This document shows positions 29,735 through 60,357 of a stretch of DNA of 64,000 nucleotides, one piece after another. Every line of letters begins with the position of its first letter. Within the stretch, counting starts at the first letter, position 1. Under the pieces are notes generated by a model that saw nothing but the letters and a program-made list of their open reading frames with translations, had not been told where the DNA came from and ran no database searches. The stretch covers positions 161,291 to 225,290 of IMG/VR virus record IMGVR_UViG_3300021431_002946. One strand, given 5' to 3'. The translations under genes and the position numbers were made by a program. Origin of the DNA: a virus. Taxonomy: Duplodnaviria; Heunggongvirae; Uroviricota; Caudoviricetes.

Positions 29735-29888
29735 ATGGATAATGATTGTAAAACCAATTTTAATTGATGTCGCTAAAAAAATTTGACAAATTTGTAAAGA
29801 ATCACCAGAACACGGTAATGCAGTTATGGATTTATTAGGAGAAGAAACCTATAATGAAATAATGCAATTACAAAGAAGAATTAAATAA
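29735..29888 (+). pseudogene. degraded small ORF
   Basis: GGAGG SD, early stop, coding-like continuation in another frame. Confidence 0.3.
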
Positions 29889-29934: not shown

Positions 29935-30252
29935 GTGGGTAGCCTCGGAGTCGCGATCCAAGGAGATAACAGTGCTTTCTCACTGAGCCACTTTTTATAT
30001 AAAGATAAAAAGTACTGTATATAGTGCATGGCTCTATTATAAATAGAAATATATGCCAAAGAAAGGTGGTGATGCCAAATGTCAATGAAGAGTAACAAGA
30101 AAAAAGGATTAATTTCCCACAATTCAGTTACTTTGCGTTAGATTATTAACTAAAGTAACATTATTTTTCATTGTATTTAGGCCTGGCCTAAGTACACAAG
30201 TGGATTGAACATAATAATAAAGTTAGCGTAGCTCTCATTGATATTTAGCTGA
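29935..30252 (+). ncRNA. putative structured RNA or leader containing a micro-ORF
   Basis: locally GC-richer; stems cagtg/cactg, cctcgga/tccaagg, gttactttg/taaagtaac, tgtatttaggc/gcctaagtaca. Confidence 0.4.
30079..30141 (+). CDS. 20-aa micro-ORF MSMKSNKKKGLISHN|SVTLR, IntC-like
   Basis: strong SD gaaaggtggtga; intein block G-like GLISHN followed by Ser. Confidence 0.45.
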   Translation: MSMKSNKKKGLISHNSVTLR

Positions 30253-30285
30253 ATAAAGCAAACCGAGTTTTATGCATTTAAAAAT

Positions 30286-30549
30286 ATGAACGGAGTTTGC
30301 GCAGTTGCAAATTCAGTAGCTGAGGCTGCAGAAATTTTAAGAATTTCTCGCGCCGTCATGTATGCTAGAAATAAGAAAATGCAAAAAATTGGCCTGAACG
30401 ATATAAATGATTTTCAACCTTCGGACTGGACTGGTAAGATCTGGATTACAGGTCGTGAGTTTGACAAGGATGAACAGATCAAAGTTCGAGTTAATGGCGA
30501 AGAGAAAACTATGACTGCACTTGAAGTATACGAGTATCTTCATAATTAA
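30286..30549 (+). CDS. HTH/NUMOD1-like DNA-binding protein, start uncertain
   Basis: SVAEAAEILRISRAVMY; frame open from 30253; no SD. Confidence 0.5.
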   Translation: MNGVCAVANSVAEAAEILRISRAVMYARNKKMQKIGLNDINDFQPSDWTGKIWITGREFDKDEQIKVRVNGEEKTMTALEVYEYLHN

Positions 30550-48438: not shown

Positions 48439-48762
48439 ATGGCAAAAATTAAACAAAGTAACCCTCTGTATATGGTTAGAACTTCTGTAGAGGATCAGGA
48501 ACGTGCGTTGTTTATTTCAAAGGCGCTTGTAAATTCTCACGCAGCTGTATCAGTTCATATAACTGAGGTAATTAGTACATTTGAATGGGAAGGATCTGTA
48601 GATACTATGAATGAGTATGAAATGACTATACTATGTACAGATCTTGAAAAAGTTAAAAAAATTATAAGTACATATCATACTTATAAGTTACCAGAATTTA
48701 TTTATGTAAAATTAGAGTCTTCTAAAGAAATAAATAAATGGTGTAATGATTGGTGTAAATAA
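48439..48762 (+). CDS. cutA: CutA-like divalent-cation tolerance protein
   Basis: A..ISKALV...AA.SV....V.STFEWEG......E, HTYKLPEFI. Confidence 0.75.
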   Translation: MAKIKQSNPLYMVRTSVEDQERALFISKALVNSHAAVSVHITEVISTFEWEGSVDTMNEYEMTILCTDLEKVKKIISTYHTYKLPEFIYVKLESSKEINKWCNDWCK

Positions 48763-48774
48763 TTGGAGGAAATT

Positions 48775-49161
48775 ATGAGTAAAATTTACGAATCTGAAGA
48801 AGAGGTAAAGTGGTCAGAAAAGAAACGCTGGGCACTATTTGGACTTCCATGGACTTTTACTACATATAGTCTTACTGAAGATAAACTCTTAATTGACTCT
48901 GGATTATTAGTACAAAAACAAGAAGAAATATTATTATATAGGGTATTAGACATTACTTTAACTAGAAATGTAATTCAAAGAATGTTTAAACTTGGTACAG
49001 TTAAATTAAGAGCTGCAGATCAAAGCACTCCTTATTTGGAATTAAAAAACATTCCTAATGCTAAAAATGTTAAAAATATGCTTTCAAAGTATGTTGAACT
49101 AGCAAAAGATAAGAAGCGTGTTGGTTCTAGTGAATTAATGGGTACAGTTAGGGATTTTTAA
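48775..49161 (+). CDS. bacterial PH-domain (bPH_2) protein
   Basis: YSLTEDKLLIDSGLL...EILLYRVLDI...QRMFKLGTV. Confidence 0.75.
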   Translation: MSKIYESEEEVKWSEKKRWALFGLPWTFTTYSLTEDKLLIDSGLLVQKQEEILLYRVLDITLTRNVIQRMFKLGTVKLRAADQSTPYLELKNIPNAKNVKNMLSKYVELAKDKKRVGSSELMGTVRDF

Positions 49162-49162
49162 T

Positions 49163-49333
49163 ATGAAAAATAAATCATTTAATACAAAAGTGATAATAAT
49201 TTCTATTATAATTTGTACTATTATTTTAATAGCAAGTATAATTGGTATATTATTTATAAATTATAAATTAAATATATCTAAACCTCTAAATTTACCTAAA
49301 CTAGAACAATCTGAAATGAGAGAAACATACTAA
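49163..49333 (+). CDS. small single-TM protein (56 aa, not in ORF track)
   Basis: MKNKSFNTK followed by a long hydrophobic stretch. Confidence 0.45.
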   Translation: MKNKSFNTKVIIISIIICTIILIASIIGILFINYKLNISKPLNLPKLEQSEMRETY

Positions 49334-49403
49334 ATACTGTCAAAGAATCCTAATGATGAGGAGTATAAATGGTAATATTGAAAGAAAATTATGGAGGTAA
49401 TTT

Positions 49404-49490
49404 ATGAGAAAAATAAGAAAGAGAGGTGATGGTCTATATTCTAGCACTAAAAATGCAATTTTTACACATAATTGCGGTGCTAGAGTATAG
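49404..49490 (+). CDS. IntC-like micro-ORF MRKIRKRGDGLYSSTKNAIFTHN|CGARV (first frame of a recoded gene)
   Basis: GGAGG SD; THN|C intein C-terminal junction. Confidence 0.65.
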   Translation: MRKIRKRGDGLYSSTKNAIFTHNCGARV

Positions 49491-49494
49491 AACC
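49431..49494 (+). other. long RNA hairpin spanning the recoding site
   Basis: ggtctatattctagcac (49431-47) pairs with gtgctagagtatagaacc (49477-94); inner gcaatt/aattgc stem. Confidence 0.7.
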
Positions 49495-49500
49495 AACCAA

Positions 49501-49848
49501 GTAGTTTGTGGAAGACTGGAAAATATTCCTTCACAAATGGCATTAGGTTCTACGCTTGGTACAACAATTGATGGTTCTCATAAAGGTGCTGGTATCACTA
49601 AAATGCAAGGTGAAATTGCACGTGTACAATATTATTTTGAGAATCAAAGTTGGATTGTCGATACATATTTTAAACAAAGAGGTCTAAATAAATTAGGTTA
49701 TTTAGATAGTCAACCTCAAGAGAAAGAAGATATAATTCTTGAAGGTAATATAGAGTTAGATAATACAAACTCTAAAACAGTTATTGATTTTGATGGTCAA
49801 CACGCAGAAATAGATAGCAGAAAAGATCAAAAATTTGAAGAATTATAA
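49501..49848 (+). CDS. C-terminal fragment of an FtsK/SpoIIIE (TcpA-like) ATPase, +1 frame relative to 49404
   Basis: VVCGRLENIPSQMALG...KGAGI...RVQYYF matches the FtsK RIAF.VSS..DSRTIL region in register. Confidence 0.6.
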   Translation, partial: VVCGRLENIPSQMALGSTLGTTIDGSHKGAGITKMQGEIARVQYYFENQSWIVDTYFKQRGLNKLGYLDSQPQEKEDIILEGNIELDNTNSKTVIDFDGQHAEIDSRKDQKFEEL

Positions 49849-49868
49849 TTTATATTTTCCATAATTAA

Positions 49869-50001
49869 CGTAATACAAATGTAATAATTTTGTATTACGT
49901 GGAGAATTGTCATACTTATTTGATATATATAGATACAAGTAGAGACACAATATTATATAAATAATAATAATAATTAAATAATAATAATAATTATTATTAT
50001 A
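49869..50001. repeat. inverted repeat plus (AAT)n tract, possible origin or operator
   Basis: acgtaatacaaa/tttgtattacgt; repeated aataataataataatt. Confidence 0.4.
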
Positions 50002-50039
50002 CATTACTGCAAAAATTTATTGAAAGGAGGATACGTTAT

Positions 50040-51206
50040 ATGAAAACAAAACCTAGTAAATTTATTAACGTATTACAATTGATTCTTGCGTATAGCGTAT
50101 CCTGTACAGAAGAAAATATAATTTTGAATCAATTAACTTTTGCTTCATTTTTAGATATTTCACATAGAACAGTTGCAAGACATTTTAGTAAAGCAAAAGA
50201 GCTAGGATATATTAAAATAATTGGTTCTGTAAGAATTTATAATAAACATACAAAAAATAATTGGTTATCTAACATATATGAAGTAAATAATGATAAAATT
50301 AATGAATATATTAAATCTGAAGTTGGAGCAGATCTTTTAAATGATATTGATAACTTAATTAACTTATATCATGAATATATGAATTTTATTAAAAATCCAA
50401 CTAATTTAGAAGATAAACTTATAATTGATAAAAAATCTCAAAATAAAATAGATATACTTAAAAAAGAAAATGTTTATTACATTAAATTACTTGATAAAGT
50501 TAATAATAATGTAATACCATTGAAATATTTGAATCAAGATAAAAAGCGACTTGTAAGTAATTTATGTTCAACTAGAAATCAGAGTCATGATCCAAATAAT
50601 ACTAGAATTAAGATTTTAAAAAACTATTTTAAAACTGAATCTGATATAATTGAATATGATACAAATGCAAGTATTTACAGATTGTCATATGCTTTAGGTC
50701 ATGGTTATTGTGCACCTTTAGATATGGATATGTATGAAGTAATTTTTAAAGAATGCAATTTTGATTTAGAATGGAATGATGAATTACGTAGTATATTTAA
50801 GAAAATTTTGATGCCTATTTATATGCGAGAAAGTTCTCTTAAATATAGATGTTTACAATATAATTCTCAGAAGTCATGGAAGTATATTTTTAATAAAACA
50901 GATAGAGAACAATATAATTCTTATATTTGGCTTGAGGAAAGACTTCAGAGACCAATCTGGAATATATTAGATACAATTCGCAATTCAATGCATAAAGTAT
51001 TAGGTCTTAATAAATTTTATAAGGCTGATATTTTTATTTATGAATCAAATTTACATATATTAATGTTGAAATTATTAAAAGATCTTAATGTTCAAACTTT
51101 AAATGTTTATGATGGTTTTTATTTTGTAAAAGGAACATTAAGTAGAGAAGAATATAATGAAATTTATACTAAAGCAAGTAATATCTTGTTATCACAATTG
51201 AAATAA
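50040..51206 (+). CDS. HTH plus family-A-polymerase-like palm protein (TV-Pol-like, possible replication protein)
   Basis: N-terminal HTH (NQLTFASFLDISHRTVARHF); IIEYDTNASIYRL, YESNL, LNVYDGFYF. Confidence 0.55.
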   Translation: MKTKPSKFINVLQLILAYSVSCTEENIILNQLTFASFLDISHRTVARHFSKAKELGYIKIIGSVRIYNKHTKNNWLSNIYEVNNDKINEYIKSEVGADLLNDIDNLINLYHEYMNFIKNPTNLEDKLIIDKKSQNKIDILKKENVYYIKLLDKVNNNVIPLKYLNQDKKRLVSNLCSTRNQSHDPNNTRIKILKNYFKTESDIIEYDTNASIYRLSYALGHGYCAPLDMDMYEVIFKECNFDLEWNDELRSIFKKILMPIYMRESSLKYRCLQYNSQKSWKYIFNKTDREQYNSYIWLEERLQRPIWNILDTIRNSMHKVLGLNKFYKADIFIYESNLHILMLKLLKDLNVQTLNVYDGFYFVKGTLSREEYNEIYTKASNILLSQLK

Positions 51207-51217
51207 GGAGATAAATA

Positions 51218-51388
51218 ATGGCAAATATAGATATTGATATTCAGAATATTTCTGATAAAGATAAATCATCTGATGGAGAAATAGTATTGATTACTGGAGA
51301 AAATGGTGAACAATGCTATGCGTTACGTTATCCAGATGGTTCAATTAAATTAATCGATCATTCTAAAAATGATAGTACATACGATTAA
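51218..51388 (+). CDS. small hypothetical protein (56 aa, not in ORF track)
   Basis: AAGGAG SD; MANIDIDIQN... Confidence 0.55.
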   Translation: MANIDIDIQNISDKDKSSDGEIVLITGENGEQCYALRYPDGSIKLIDHSKNDSTYD

Positions 51389-51415
51389 CAATAACTGAGA
51401 AAGGAGATTTGTAAA

Positions 51416-52591
51416 ATGAGTACAATTAAATGGCTACCTACTACTGCACAATTAAAAAATGACGCACCTGGAACAATTATTTTAGGATCTCCTGGTTCAG
51501 GTAAAACATTCTTTTTAGTAAATATTGCTGCAAATGCATTAGGAATGGGACAAAGAGTTATTGCAATTGATCCTAAAAATGACTTAGGAGCAATTTATAA
51601 TATTAATCCTAATATTGAAGTTGTAGATGTTAACTATATTAGACCTGGTGCATTAAATCCATTTGAATTTTTAAAGAAAGAAAAACCAGATGGTTCTTTT
51701 GAATATCCAGACTCAGCAACAATAACATCAATTATTCAATTATTATTAGGTAAATTAGATAAAGCAGATGAAGATGCACTTATTCCAAAAGTAAAAGACT
51801 TTGTAATTAAAAATAAGCGTAATGAACATATAGATTTATTAGATTTTGGAAATTATCTTTTAAGTAAATCAGATGTTGAATCAAGAACAATGGGTCAAAA
51901 ACTTTTATTATATGCAGATAATAAATATGGTAAACTTTTATTTACATATGATACAGAGGCTAAACCACTTGTATTATCAAAAGATAAGTCTATTATAATT
52001 ACATTACATGGTATGGAATTACCTGATTGTAGTAAACGTGTTGAAGATTATGATGCAAATGATAGATTTACTTCTACAATTATTTATATTATTGCATCAA
52101 AATTATTAGATATATTACAAGATAATGAAAAAACACCTAAAGTATTAATTTGTGATGAGGCGCATATATTATTTAATAATAGGCAAATGGCAAGTGTTAT
52201 TAATAAATTTTTAACATTAGGTCGTGCATTAAATACTGCAACTGTACTTGCGTCTCAAGGTATTTCACAATTTCCTAAAAATATTGCAAATTATATTACT
52301 TCAAAATTTATATTTAAATCTTCAATTGAAGAAGCGCGACAATTTTTAGAATTATTTAATACTGGTGCGCTTGATGCGTCTCAGTCTATTGATGAAGATA
52401 ATATAGTAACCGCAATTACACAGTTACCTAAAGGTGTATGTTTCTTTATAGATAGAAAAAATAGAAATGGTGTTATACATATTAAATCAAATTATGATGA
52501 AAAATTAATTTCATCAAATCCACTTACAAAGAAACGTATAGATGAAAATGGTAATTTAGTAGATAGAGAAGATATTGATGAAGAAGAATAA
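51416..52591 (+). CDS. VirB4/TcpF-like ATPase (C-terminal domain only)
   Basis: GSPGSGKT, IDPK.D, LNPF, ICDEAH, GRALN..VLASQ. Confidence 0.8.
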   Translation: MSTIKWLPTTAQLKNDAPGTIILGSPGSGKTFFLVNIAANALGMGQRVIAIDPKNDLGAIYNINPNIEVVDVNYIRPGALNPFEFLKKEKPDGSFEYPDSATITSIIQLLLGKLDKADEDALIPKVKDFVIKNKRNEHIDLLDFGNYLLSKSDVESRTMGQKLLLYADNKYGKLLFTYDTEAKPLVLSKDKSIIITLHGMELPDCSKRVEDYDANDRFTSTIIYIIASKLLDILQDNEKTPKVLICDEAHILFNNRQMASVINKFLTLGRALNTATVLASQGISQFPKNIANYITSKFIFKSSIEEARQFLELFNTGALDASQSIDEDNIVTAITQLPKGVCFFIDRKNRNGVIHIKSNYDEKLISSNPLTKKRIDENGNLVDREDIDEEE

Positions 52592-52610
52592 TTAAAGGAG
52601 AAGATGAAAA

Positions 52611-53177
52611 ATGGTAGATCTAAATGAAGAGTTTTGGATTAGTGTTTCTGAATTTTTGAATGCAAATCCAGCATTAGTTTTTAAGTTTACTACAACAGAT
52701 TCAAATTCAATTAAACAAAGAGGGTTAAAATGGTTTGAATCTTGGCAAGCATTAAAATCAAATATTAAATATACACATGATATTTGTAGAATTCTTAAAG
52801 ATTTGAGATATTTAAAAGAATCAAATGCATATATTAGTTCTCAAGCATTTGAATACTTAAATAAAATTAATTTAGGATTAAAAGAAATTGAACCTAATAT
52901 TGAAAATGTTGAAGTTGTTGGAGGAGATAGAGAAAACTCTTGGTATTTTTATCCTGAAAATAATTCATATTTAGAAATAGCAACTTGGGCAAAGCAAAAA
53001 GTTGGTGGAATATTTGAAAATATGCCTTTGGATGAAATTATGAACAAACATATGTTCTTTGGATCTGATACTGGTTTCTCAAAAGGATTTTACAATGGTG
53101 ATACAATTGTATTATATAAAGATATAGATGCTTTAGAAGAAAATGTAAAACAAGATGCTGAATTTGTAAGGAAGTAA
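52611..53177 (+). CDS. hypothetical protein
   Basis: ORF with SD. Confidence 0.6.
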   Translation: MVDLNEEFWISVSEFLNANPALVFKFTTTDSNSIKQRGLKWFESWQALKSNIKYTHDICRILKDLRYLKESNAYISSQAFEYLNKINLGLKEIEPNIENVEVVGGDRENSWYFYPENNSYLEIATWAKQKVGGIFENMPLDEIMNKHMFFGSDTGFSKGFYNGDTIVLYKDIDALEENVKQDAEFVRK

Positions 53178-53182
53178 TACAA

Positions 53183-53401
53183 ATGACTTTATATGAACAA
53201 TTTGAGAAATATTGTCATAAATTACCTGGAAAATGTTATCCAGAAACAGCAGGTAAAATGGCAACAACTCATGGAGAAGCATTACATAGATTTGTATTAC
53301 CATTTATAAAAAAGAATAACGCAGAAATTACTATAACTATTAAAAATTTAAATAATAATTTATATTATATTGTAGAAGATGTGAGAAAGAAGGTAAATTA
53401 A
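53183..53401 (+). CDS. hypothetical protein
   Basis: ORF. Confidence 0.5.
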   Translation: MTLYEQFEKYCHKLPGKCYPETAGKMATTHGEALHRFVLPFIKKNNAEITITIKNLNNNLYYIVEDVRKKVN

Positions 53402-53405
53402 AAAA

Positions 53406-54257
53406 ATGAGATTTTTAAGAAATAAGGAAGGTACAATTGTTGCAGTAATTGTAATTTTAATTGGTATTGCTGTTGGTTATTTTGCAGTGTCAACACTTGC
53501 CAAATATTATTGGGATGCTGCTGCAAATAATAATGCGTACAAAAAAGTAACTGACGAATTTTATAATGATGATGAAAATAAGGAAACTCCTACAGTTCCT
53601 GCAGATCCAAATGCGCCTTTATCTAATGATACTAAACAACAATTACTAGATAAGTATAATAAGATGCATAATATAAATAAAGATTATGTATTTTGGTTAA
53701 GTATGGAAGGAATTAATCTTGAATATCCAGTTGTATCATCTAGTAATGATAGAATGGGAGAATATACTTATTTAACTCATGACTTTTATAAGAAGAAGAA
53801 TAAAAATGGATGTTTATTCATGTCTGAAAATTGTACAACAGATAGTGATAATATTATTATTTATGGACATAATATGAAATCTGGTGAAATGTTTGGTAAG
53901 CTTAATAGATATGAAAAAGCGTCATTTGTAAAAGAGCATCCTCTTATTTTAGTGTATTTAAAAGATGAAATTAGATATTACGAAATAATTTCAGTATTTA
54001 CTTGTCCAAATGCAAAGAGACCTTTTAACTGGGAAAGTTATACATATATGCCAGGCGCAGGTCAAAGAGTAAGATTCGGATATAAAGTAAAAAATAGTTC
54101 TATGATTGCAACAAAATATGATCCTACTATTCATATGGATAAGTTCTTAACATTAGTAACTTGTGAATATACACATGAAGATGGTAGATTAGTAGTTATT
54201 GCAAGACAGTTAGGTACACCTAAGATAGAAGATTATCAAAAACAAGGAGTAGAATAA
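53406..54257 (+). CDS. srtB: class B sortase
   Basis: N-terminal TM; YPVV, IYGHNM...MFG.L, TLVTC, GRLVV. Confidence 0.9.
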   Translation: MRFLRNKEGTIVAVIVILIGIAVGYFAVSTLAKYYWDAAANNNAYKKVTDEFYNDDENKETPTVPADPNAPLSNDTKQQLLDKYNKMHNINKDYVFWLSMEGINLEYPVVSSSNDRMGEYTYLTHDFYKKKNKNGCLFMSENCTTDSDNIIIYGHNMKSGEMFGKLNRYEKASFVKEHPLILVYLKDEIRYYEIISVFTCPNAKRPFNWESYTYMPGAGQRVRFGYKVKNSSMIATKYDPTIHMDKFLTLVTCEYTHEDGRLVVIARQLGTPKIEDYQKQGVE

Positions 54258-54613: not shown

Positions 54614-55381
54614 ATGGCTAACGGAAAACGATTAGATGAAAATATTGCCGACTCAAAAGATCAAGAGCAAGTATTAAAAGGTATACAACCAAGACATCAA
54701 AACTGTTTTAAATTCTTTAAAATTTGTAGATTTTTATCAATATTTGCATTAGTAATGGGAATTATTGCATTTATATTAACTAAAGTACCTGTATTTAAAT
54801 TTATTACTGCTACAAGTTTTTATAGAAAATATATTTTTGGTGGAATGCTCATTCTTGCTGCTATTATTGGATTATTAGCAGTATTGACTAGAGTTTTATT
54901 CTTAAGAAAAGCTCCATTTGATGATTGGGTTTGGGATATTGCATCAAATAGACTTGGAACAGACGTTATCTTTTATGATAGTAGATACATATATCTTAGT
55001 TATGATAGAAAAGGAAAAGAAGTTGATAAGAAAGATTTTGTTACTGAAATGAGTGATAAATCAATTCATTATTCATATTTCTATGTAAAAACTGATATTG
55101 ATGCTGGATATATTGTAGTTGAATGTAAAAAGCGAGCACCTATTCCAACAAAAGCATCATTAAATGCAGACGATGATAAATTTTGGAATATTATTCCATT
55201 AGGTTTAACTATTCATCCAATAAGACAAACTATCGCTCCTATTGGTTGGTATTTAAATGATCAAAATGTAAATGATGAATTATTAGAAACTATTCCGTCT
55301 GTTTCAATACTTATTGCTGGTGGTACAGGATGTATGGAAAAAAATACTCCTGTTGTAATGCACGATTCTATTATAAAGTAA
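54614..55381 (+). CDS. N-terminal fragment of FtsK/TcpA-like membrane ATPase fused to a 16-aa split-intein IntN
   Basis: 2 TM; IPLG; SILIAGGTG (half Walker A) then CMEKNTPVVMHDSIIK and stop. Confidence 0.75.
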   Translation: MANGKRLDENIADSKDQEQVLKGIQPRHQNCFKFFKICRFLSIFALVMGIIAFILTKVPVFKFITATSFYRKYIFGGMLILAAIIGLLAVLTRVLFLRKAPFDDWVWDIASNRLGTDVIFYDSRYIYLSYDRKGKEVDKKDFVTEMSDKSIHYSYFYVKTDIDAGYIVVECKKRAPIPTKASLNADDDKFWNIIPLGLTIHPIRQTIAPIGWYLNDQNVNDELLETIPSVSILIAGGTGCMEKNTPVVMHDSIIK

Positions 55382-58609: not shown

Positions 58610-59863
58610 ATGAATAAGAAGTTGGAACGTAAATTAAAAAATCTTAATGTTCAGAAAATTGATTTTCCTGAACTAAAAAATATTATTTTTAGAAATAAGG
58701 ATTTTAGAACTACAAATTATCTTGTAGAGTCTATTGATTGGTTAATAGATAATAATATTAAAGTAACTAATATACCAAAGACTGACGCTTTTGCAAAGTT
58801 TAATGAAAATAAAGAAGATCAAACTATTGAAGAAGAAGATGCTGAATATGATACTTCTGAAATGACTACTTTAGAAGAAGTAGAGGAAATTGAAAAAGAA
58901 ATTGAAGAAGAAGATAAGGCATCAAACTATACTGAAATTAATACTTCTAGTGATTATATTCTTAATTTATATATAGGTGATGTTTCTGCAATTAAAAGAA
59001 AAAATCTTACTAAAGAAGAAGAAGTAGAACTTTTTAAGAAATATCATAATGGTGATGAAAGTGCAAAGCAAGAATTAATTGAAAGAAATTTAAGACTTGT
59101 ATTATTTTGTGCTAGAAAATACGCAAATAAGTCATTAAAGTTAAGTATAATGGATATTATTCAAGAAGGTAATACTGGTTTACTTATTGCATTAGATAAA
59201 TTTGATTATACCATGGGATTTAGATTCGCTACATATGCAGTTTGGTGGATTATTAATGGTATTAAGACTGCAATTGCAAATAATGGTAAAACAATTAGAA
59301 TACCGATACATACAACTGAACAAGCACTTGCAGTTCTTAAAGCAAAATCCGCTTTAATGAATAAAACAGGTAAAGAACCAACATTTGAAGAAATCGCAGA
59401 TTATTGTAACAAGAATGATCTTAATAAAAATGTTAAAAGAAGAGATGGTGTAAAACCTCCTCTTACTGCAGCACAAGCAAAAAAGTTCTTATTTATATAT
59501 CAAACTGAACTTATTTCTATTGATACACCTACTGGTGAAAATGAAGATGATAATCTATATGAATTTCTTGAGGATAAAGAAACAGAATCACCAGAGAGTT
59601 ATACAGATAGATTAGTACTTAGAGATCAAATTGAAGAAGTTATGAACCAAAAACTTAATAAAAGAGAAAGAATAATGGTTAAGCTTAGATACGGCTGGGA
59701 TGATGATAATCCTAAAACATATGTTGAAATTGGTGAAATGTTTGGAGTAACAAAACAATGTATTGAATCAACTGTAAAAAGAGCTCTTAAAAAGTTAAGT
59801 AAATCAACAAAACTTAAAATACCTAAGACAAAGGAAGAATTAAGATGGTGGAGTACAAGATAA
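58610..59863 (+). CDS. RpoD-like sigma70 factor 2
   Basis: NLRLV, DIIQEGNTGL, FRFATYAVWWI, TIRIP.H. Confidence 0.9.
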   Translation: MNKKLERKLKNLNVQKIDFPELKNIIFRNKDFRTTNYLVESIDWLIDNNIKVTNIPKTDAFAKFNENKEDQTIEEEDAEYDTSEMTTLEEVEEIEKEIEEEDKASNYTEINTSSDYILNLYIGDVSAIKRKNLTKEEEVELFKKYHNGDESAKQELIERNLRLVLFCARKYANKSLKLSIMDIIQEGNTGLLIALDKFDYTMGFRFATYAVWWIINGIKTAIANNGKTIRIPIHTTEQALAVLKAKSALMNKTGKEPTFEEIADYCNKNDLNKNVKRRDGVKPPLTAAQAKKFLFIYQTELISIDTPTGENEDDNLYEFLEDKETESPESYTDRLVLRDQIEEVMNQKLNKRERIMVKLRYGWDDDNPKTYVEIGEMFGVTKQCIESTVKRALKKLSKSTKLKIPKTKEELRWWSTR

Positions 59864-60357
59864 CATTTTCAGATAAAAGTTTTATGTATGTAGATAATAC
59901 ATTTAAACTTTGTTTATTTAAGAATTATAATCATAAACCAATTAGAGTAAATATTAAAGATTATTTAGATTTTTGGCATATATTTCTGAATAATTATTTT
60001 TTTATGGATCAAATTTCTGAAAATAATCAAAAATTACTTGCTTTTAGTATTACTGAAGCTGAAGATAGAAAAGATTTGCCTTTAAATACACGATATAAAA
60101 TGTCAAATGATATTGAAGTTGGAGATATTGTTGAAGGTCCAGATGGTCCTAGAACAGTAAAAAATCTTCATCGTGGTGAAGAAGCAATGTATGAAATTGA
60201 TATAAATGGTGTAAAGTATAATGTAAATGAAGGTCACGTATTACACTTAATTGATAAAGATGATCCTACTAATGTATTAGATATTCAAGTTGGAGTATAT
60301 ATGCATATGGATGATGAATTTAAAAGTCATTGGGTAATGGAAAAGATTATAAATTAA
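59845..60357 (+). CDS. free-standing intein (Hint) core fragment lacking both splice-junction termini
   Basis: DIEVGDIVEGPDGPRTVKNLHRGEEAMYEI...VNEGHVLHL (block B His); no Cys1, no terminal HN. Confidence 0.75.
   Translation: MVEYKITFSDKSFMYVDNTFKLCLFKNYNHKPIRVNIKDYLDFWHIFLNNYFFMDQISENNQKLLAFSITEAEDRKDLPLNTRYKMSNDIEVGDIVEGPDGPRTVKNLHRGEEAMYEIDINGVKYNVNEGHVLHLIDKDDPTNVLDIQVGVYMHMDDEFKSHWVMEKIIN

Follow-up and report, generated by a model that had tools for sequence, protein, structure and literature searches.

A short gene of a giant uncultured bacterial element, classed as a virus, is interrupted by 16 non-coding bases that translating ribosomes probably skip; stop-triggered ribosomal bypassing with re-pairing at a matched codon is the best explanation of the comparative sequence data and one which we consider quite probable. 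The gene occupies 49404-49848 of the window, i.e., of the whole 64,000-nt stretch analysed (C1:161291-225290 of a 467,383-bp circular record classed as virus in IMG/VR), and its gap belongs to what is likely a new, non-homologous variant of programmed bypassing, operating within a candidate natural three-piece intein system. The broader scheme, which we are cautiously inclined to accept, is that four polypeptides give one ATPase via two natural three-piece class 3 inteins, and that the tiny C-intein genes carry a new, evolvable family of hop elements, triggered by stops, 4-38 nt long, as many as three in one gene, with natural in-frame stop hops among them, and driven mainly by one upstream RNA stem, so that the hop-or-stop ratio may set the amount of spliced working ATPase.

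The frame opened by ATG 49404 comprises 28 codons, the last being GTA 49485-87, followed by TAG 49488-90; the second GTA (49501-03) precedes GTT 49504 in the +1 frame, which is open from GTG 49426 and continues up to TAA 49848. Take-off codon, stop, landing codon and frames had all been located correctly in the earlier note, and the upstream stem of ~17 bp described there is present as well, being slightly longer, with 19 bp: 49430-49448 pairs with 49476-49495 leaving one bulged A, and a 6-bp inner and a 3-bp outer helix are added (Table 1). None of 200 shuffles of the 166-nt stem region is equally stable (z = -4.6), and none of the 621 + strand gene stops of the element folds equally well over the same 87-nt span. 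As had been proposed, skipping of 16 nt rebuilds the family junction without any indel: it is contiguous in 52 of the 120 homologous proteins listed (15 carry an insert, and 53 start downstream and are not classable) and in 9 of the 24 related loci fetched, the other 15 having a gap of 4-38 nt at the take-off codon of the window or five codons earlier. When the intein-less homolog P0222 is aligned with its TcpA/FtsK matches there is a one-residue gap at the junction, so the gapless fit reported together with this skip is best seen within the family. A read error had been argued against on account of the stem, and this is borne out in another way, since the same translated gap is met in the +1-frame proteins of other assemblies (P0184, P0185, and P0001), whose upstream differences alter the +1 frame, whereas for the short ORF they could all be silent. 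Judged from the assemblies alone, the 16-nt gap would be no assembly slip; we regard bases 49488-49503 as truly inserted into a gene on which selection acts. The tetranucleotide AGTA is duplicated at the gap, and neither GAG nor GGA (mini Shine-Dalgarno) occurs within it. Gene callers misannotate such loci, giving +1-frame ORFs or reading TAG as Gln.

Table 1. Positions of the features of both gap genes in the window.
Feature	Position	Strand	Remark
Shine-Dalgarno GGAGG	49393..49397	+	read from the sequence; 6 nt 5' of ATG
Mini C-intein	49404..49472	+	variable basic leader and block G ending IFTHN (Thr of class 3 triad)
First five C-extein codons	49473..49487	+	+1 Cys to take-off codon GTA (49485-49487)
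Coding gap, 16 nt	49488..49503	+	TAG stop (49488-90) to landing codon GTA (49501-03)
5' arm of predicted 19-bp mRNA stem	49430..49448	+	within leader
3' arm of the stem	49476..49495	+	last exon codons, take-off codon, stop, gap start
Second exon, 114 codons	49504..49848	+	C-terminal part of TcpA/FtsK-like ATPase
Second mini C-intein gene	30079..30549	+	intein block G reads LISHN|S; product predicted to be the ATPase's middle piece, directly behind Walker A; three stop-led gaps
Second gene, gap 1, 18 nt	30139..30156	+	take-off CGT 30136, landing AGT 30154; two in-frame stops
Second gene, gap 2, 29 nt	30178..30206	+	ATT 30175 to ATT 30204; T4-like hairpin, take-off and stop in 5' arm
Second gene, gap 3, 10 nt	30246..30255	+	ATT 30243 to ATA 30253

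After removal of five near-duplicates (L014, L019, L020, L022, and L030) the related loci comprise 12 with a gap, including the window, and 8 contiguous ones. Ten of the 12 gaps (6-38 nt) follow Arg-Ile/Val/Met codons, while two (4 and 10 nt) are placed between the intein Asn and the +1 Cys, an arrangement seen in L013-L015. The second exon is open in every gap locus, and in several loci no start codon is found ahead of its conserved part. Across seven locus pairs, each with at least one gap-bearing member, second-exon dN/dS ranges from 0.02 to 0.11; the first-exon core gives pS 0.70 and pN 0.09, and L009 and L031, sharing a common 6-nt gap, differ by 18 silent and 2 replacement changes. These values argue that purifying selection is kept on both exons. 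Placed on a tree of 113 columns, obtained by quick search and poorly resolved, the gap label needs 15 changes, at least four of them forced by well-supported branches. A homing-endonuclease-like gene lies upstream of about 5 of the 12 gap loci and of 1 of the 8 contiguous ones, as counted from ORF tails with some loci incomplete, and the link between gaps and such neighbours is only suggestive. The leaders of L009, L019, L021, L024-L026, and L031 contain an extended anti-Shine-Dalgarno complement (GGAGGTGAT-like) within their coding sequence, apparently a former ribosome-binding site left after an upstream shift of the start; in some of them it overlaps the stem.

Considered over both genes, the distinct gaps number 19, and, the loci being related, they do not represent 19 independent origins. 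All of them begin with an in-frame stop—TAG, TGA, or TAA—and they fall into all three frames (9/5/5), with two or three stops contained in four of the nine in-frame gaps. As to the matched codons that the earlier note proposed to look for at homologous loci, landing and take-off codons are identical in 8 gaps and synonymous in 4, making 12 of 19, and near-cognate in the other 7, where the take-off tRNA, judged from the codons, fits two of three positions. That 7 of 19 landing codons do not code for the take-off residue counts against bypassing; take-off codons retain the conserved residue, and landing codons have drifted to those for Ser, Thr, or Leu. Such latitude in landing codons is described in the available text of Manning and Atkins (bioRxiv 10.1101/2022.08.31.505936).

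A signal that separates gap loci from their contiguous relatives is located upstream. Pairing of the 18 nt ending at the take-off codon with upstream sequence amounts to 0.68-1.0 in the 12 gap loci versus 0.12-0.49 in the 8 contiguous ones (p = 2.4e-4), and the difference is retained by same-clade pairs (L012 0.93 versus L016 0.12, L024 0.88 versus L018 0.35, and L031 0.87 versus L023 0.23). For the second gene the ranges are 0.66-0.93 at six gap sites and 0.49-0.63 at six contiguous sites; 33 of 621 ordinary gene stops likewise reach at least 0.66. Across lineages the 5' arms are formed by unrelated leaders, often with the start codon included; L013 has a weak stem (z = 0.2) and L021 a moderate one (z = -1.9), the end of the stem bears no fixed relation to gap length in the loci compared, and in the 6-nt gaps the stem covers the landing codon. 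Stem covariation, suggested earlier as a check, turned out weak in the one five-sequence subclade, with 1 of 29 pairs compensatory and an unfavourable covariation term. Contiguous relatives devoid of the stem, which had been regarded as speaking against bypassing, do exist, but stem and gap co-occur across loci, and this favours the bypass reading. The basic run at the N-terminus cannot be taken as evidence of the nascent-peptide signal that the earlier note saw in it, because K/R residues are equally common in contiguous relatives (4.1 versus 4.3 in the first 12 residues), and comparison of gap and contiguous loci revealed no gap-specific nascent-peptide or downstream-stem signal. Taken as a whole, the comparative evidence supports interpretation of the gap as a bypass.

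A feature absent from the earlier note is that the short ORF constitutes the C-terminal piece of a split intein, ending IFTHN|C. The N-side partner gene (C1:149244-151459), interrupted by three group II introns, ends in NN followed by a 12-residue N-intein that starts with Pro in all four genomes, and the middle intein piece is a free 121-residue Hint protein (C1:140120-140485), free-standing in 4/4 genomes and having 63 homologs of similar size (search range 66-212 residues). His52, Trp54, and Cys104 of this protein are invariant in 57 aligned sequences. Its best PDB matches begin in register with residue 13 of solved inteins; we take 6RIX and 6BS8 to be mycobacterial class 3 DnaB inteins. 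Trp54 and Cys104 together with Thr of IFTHN complete the class 3 triad, and the end features of that class are also found: a non-nucleophilic Pro1 (4/4 genomes), terminal His-Asn, and a +1 nucleophile (HN|C). According to the accessible part of PMC7891396, the triad consists of Trp N3:12, Cys C2:4, and Thr C1:5. The layout of the pieces is settled by three proteins: P0222 lacks the intein and has both exteins joined at NN|C (E 3e-41 and 8e-37), thereby fixing the junction, while P0223 and P0224 combine middle piece, block G, and C-extein in one fusion. P0222 matches FtsK and a "DNA translocase coupling protein" (6O1W-Z, E 8e-10), presumably TcpA of pCW3. From N-piece, middle protein, and C-piece we predict a natural class 3 intein in three parts, whose splicing would join the pieces of a TcpA/FtsK-like ATPase.

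Tracing of the ATPase pieces brought to light the second gap gene. Its gap 2 is the only one in G001 and G003 (21 and 24 nt) and gap 3 the only one in G002 and G004 (6 and 10 nt), G004 being contiguous across gaps 1 and 2, so that each site is contiguous in some relative. At gap 2 the take-off codon and TAG make up the 5' arm of a conserved hairpin with variable loop, and the 196-nt region folds with z = -5.9; apart from gaps 1 and 2 of this gene, a hairpin with take-off in the 5' arm is predicted only in L025. Likely partners of the second gene lie at C1:121330, where a short tail follows Walker A, and at C1:115612, which encodes a 194-residue protein; this assignment is weaker than that for the first gene, with Atlas scores below 0.9. 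The gap of L012, which belongs to the first gene, and the one at 30178-30206 of the window share identical first eight and last five bases, which hints that gap sequences may be exchanged between genes.

Two genome-wide screens, both of limited sensitivity, revealed no third gap gene. The jump-aware one, covering four related genomes with cross-genome matches for 1242 of 1955 genes, re-found the window site in all three gap-bearing genomes and returned 11 further rows, among which dUTPase and signal peptidase proved to be contiguous genes and some of the rest were spurious by eye; it missed the second gap gene. The screen for start-less ORFs gave 120 conserved candidates, 19 of them remaining once G001-G003 pairs were left out, and among the candidates listed were intron exons, the second gene, and one TGG-to-TGA nonsense change. 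A small gene at 29740-29888 of the window has TGA versus TGG in G003, i.e., a nonsense change or readthrough, with no gap.

In the sequence of events that we propose, the ribosome would pause at TAG, peptidyl-tRNA would let go of GTA, and after a slide over 16 nt the tRNA would re-pair at the second GTA, yielding a single protein with intein C-end and ATPase tail; ribosomes terminating at TAG would leave a 28-residue dead-end piece. The leader may zip onto take-off-side mRNA leaving the ribosome, with the stem thus formed pushing the ribosome forward, a role modelled on the T4 "driver" in the available text of Wills et al. (bioRxiv 10.1101/2024.12.09.627546); by hiding the start region it could also hold off the trailing ribosome. 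Trans-splicing at NN|C would next attach the hop product to the protein piece from C1:149244-151459, aided by the free middle intein (C1:140120-140485). Gaps were found only in short-leader genes; insertions may be tolerated there because the leader can evolve a stem freely, and homing endonucleases in the neighbourhood may favour them (compare PMC2677866, available in part).

Other ways to obtain or to dispense with a continuous product were weighed against the same data. Excision of gaps from RNA by a trans-acting ribozyme or nuclease-ligase system, followed by ordinary translation, would suit an element rich in group I and group II introns whose core gene set includes an RNA 2'-phosphotransferase, the more so as in 10 of the 12 gaps of the window gene some G-ending register restores the consensus; we nevertheless regard it as very unlikely, given that the other two gaps have no such register, no consensus-restoring register combines a U.G pair at the 5' site with a terminal G, a GUGYG start is lacking, Rfam has no match at 48500-50500, and the use of three different stop codons at one in-frame position points to the ribosome. 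We know of no splicing motif fitting into gaps of 4-6 nt. A group I or II intron proper was rejected, neither the U.G pair with terminal G, nor GUGYG...AY ends, nor, at 48500-50500, a ribozyme core being found. Inactive alleles, in which footprints of mobile elements or hairpin-templated insertions keep the gene off until precise deletion, would account for near-identical second exons existing both with and without a gap, for the AGTA duplication, for the partial complementarity of several gaps to the upstream arm, and for the homing-endonuclease-like gene preceding some loci. This is rendered very unlikely by strong purifying selection on both exons (as in L009 versus L031), by second exons open in all gap loci, by the accumulation of three gaps in one gene, and by the stop heading each gap in frame, which random footprints do not require.

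Readthrough or a +1/-1 frameshift at the stop, with extra residues tolerated (RTNQV in the window), agrees with 9 of 19 gaps being in frame and with TAG being the rarest stop of the element (24/624), yet one site would need three mechanisms, four of the nine in-frame gaps hold two or three stops, none of the 52 contiguous homologs among the 120 listed has an insertion here, and at the HN|C site extra residues would part the intein Asn from the +1 Cys; a +1 shift would moreover move the tRNA from GTA to TAT with no re-pairing, and we give this option a very small chance. Amber recoding was discarded: none of the 58 tRNAs encoded by the element has a CUA anticodon, and Q in some database proteins is the stop. 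Separate translation of the two exons, by re-initiation or from the upstream +1 frame, and their non-covalent assembly could exploit the frame open from GTG 49426 or ATT, which is usable as a rare start codon; it seems extremely improbable in view of the several loci lacking a start before the conserved second exon, of the differences among close copies that alter the +1 frame, and of L013-L015, where the gap between intein Asn and +1 Cys makes a covalent link obligatory.

Bypassing as the preferred reading invites comparison with T4 gene 60 and the MobA-cassette homologs treated by Manning and Atkins and by Wills et al. (both cited above). These share with the present gaps a take-off codon with adjacent stop, a non-coding gap free of earlier landing sites, and a landing codon that is matched or equivalent by wobble. 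For T4 the proposed driver is a stem that forms behind the ribosome, and upstream pairing is predicted here; in the second gene, moreover, a hairpin whose 5' arm contains take-off and stop accompanies the longer gaps. The likeness to gene 60 drawn in the earlier note stands for matched codons, adjacent stop, and upstream stem; the take-off codon, however, occupies the 3' arm, whereas the T4 take-off stem has it on the 5' side, and by analogy the window stem resembles the upstream "driver" stem of T4 rather than its take-off stem. The systems differ in host gene (TcpA/FtsK-like ATPase pieces here, topoisomerase there), in neighbours, the MobA cassette being absent here, in gaps that are much shorter, more variable (4-38 nt), and several per gene, in take-off codons (here Ile/Val/Met/Asn/Arg), and in the window gap having no mini-SD, found in T4 about 6 nt 5' of the landing codon; a gap-specific nascent peptide was not seen, the basic leader occurring equally in loci with no gap. 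By sequence and analogy the window system would be one that works like T4 gene 60 outside that cassette family.

The terminase of Streptomyces phage Hau3, as presented in the available part of PMC10732093, also has short inserts (7-10 nt) and a 5' stem-loop as proposed stimulator, and its insert was functional in E. coli once UUA was changed to a stop; its trigger is a hungry UUA codon and three genes are known, whereas the gaps described here begin with true stops, come in many lengths, and occupy five sites in two genes. Magnusiomyces mitochondrial byps, known to us via the accessible text of Manning and Atkins, resemble our case in several inserts per gene and tolerance of imperfect landing codons, and differ in being mitochondrial, of 27-55 nt, with an unassigned sense codon, in 12 genes, whereas our gaps were met in two genes only and under translation of bacterial type. 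Class 3 split inteins (AceL NrdHF, PMC7891396) have the WCT triad and a non-nucleophilic first residue, and Weis et al. (bioRxiv 10.1101/2023.01.30.526203) deal with engineered inteins divided into N, M, and C pieces, these two sources being likewise partly available; the one described here is apparently natural, three-part, and with its triad distributed over two genes. The available text of Weis et al. states that more than two intein fragments had not been shown in nature. The literature covered, with few subscription papers in it, yielded gene 60 and homologs, Hau3 terminase, and yeast byps for bypassing, and engineered examples for three-part inteins, with nothing on these elements and no natural three-part inteins.

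Very few systems of programmed bypassing are known, and the present loci offer a natural allelic series in which one codon position has no gap or 4-38 nt, three stop codons, matched or unmatched landings, and unrelated stems, so that in a bacterial system both the minimal bypass signals and the model of exiting mRNA as driver can be tested directly. Gaps of 6 nt would be natural in-frame stop hops, of which none was known to a 2016 review (PMC5009743, available in part). Intein biology would gain something new, and protein labelling a useful tool, from natural inteins in three pieces whose C-piece may comprise only about a dozen residues.

The element has 119 genes in common with three related records of 290-394 kb. 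Pfam and PHROGs scans, run on 68 and 32 of them, respectively, revealed RNA polymerase subunits, sigma factors, PolA, DnaB, gyrase, ParA, sortases, and a T2SSE-type ATPase, and no capsid, portal, or convincing terminase among these scanned genes; Terminase_6N was not found in any of the four records, and INPHARED and PLSDB contained no relatives. Two options for the nature of the element are a jumbo phage whose virion genes escape recognition and a giant element of conjugative type, and sortases together with one relative in a Bacilli genome bin suggest a Bacillota host. Adjoining the gap gene, 50040-54257 of the window encodes a conserved 388-residue HTH-led ORF, a VirB4/TcpF-like ATPase, and sortase B; along with other core genes these hint that the virus-classed record may encode a conjugation-type apparatus. 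A tRNA-Ile with TAT anticodon, unusual for bacteria, is encoded at G000:C1:287049-287125 and may be relevant to the ATT-to-ATA landing.

Inteins are met elsewhere in the element as well. The N-terminal ATPase piece at G000:C1:120089-121330 carries in its P-loop a contiguous intein that starts with Pro, its short tail resembling another N-intein, and a class 1 intein in a SNF2-like helicase (G000:C1:385350-388854) is interrupted by an endonuclease-like ORF. A second FtsK-like gene (window 54614-55381 and G000:C1:250042-254372) is intein-split at Walker A, with a 16-residue N-piece (Cys1) in the window and, 34 kb off, a 40-residue C-piece, behind which lie group I introns as well as endonuclease-like ORFs, GIY-YIG-like ones among them. 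The free-standing Hint-like protein at 59845-60357 of the window (Pfam Hom_end_hint E 2.5e-4), conserved in four of four genomes, is possibly the middle piece for the intein of this gene, a candidate third three-piece intein.
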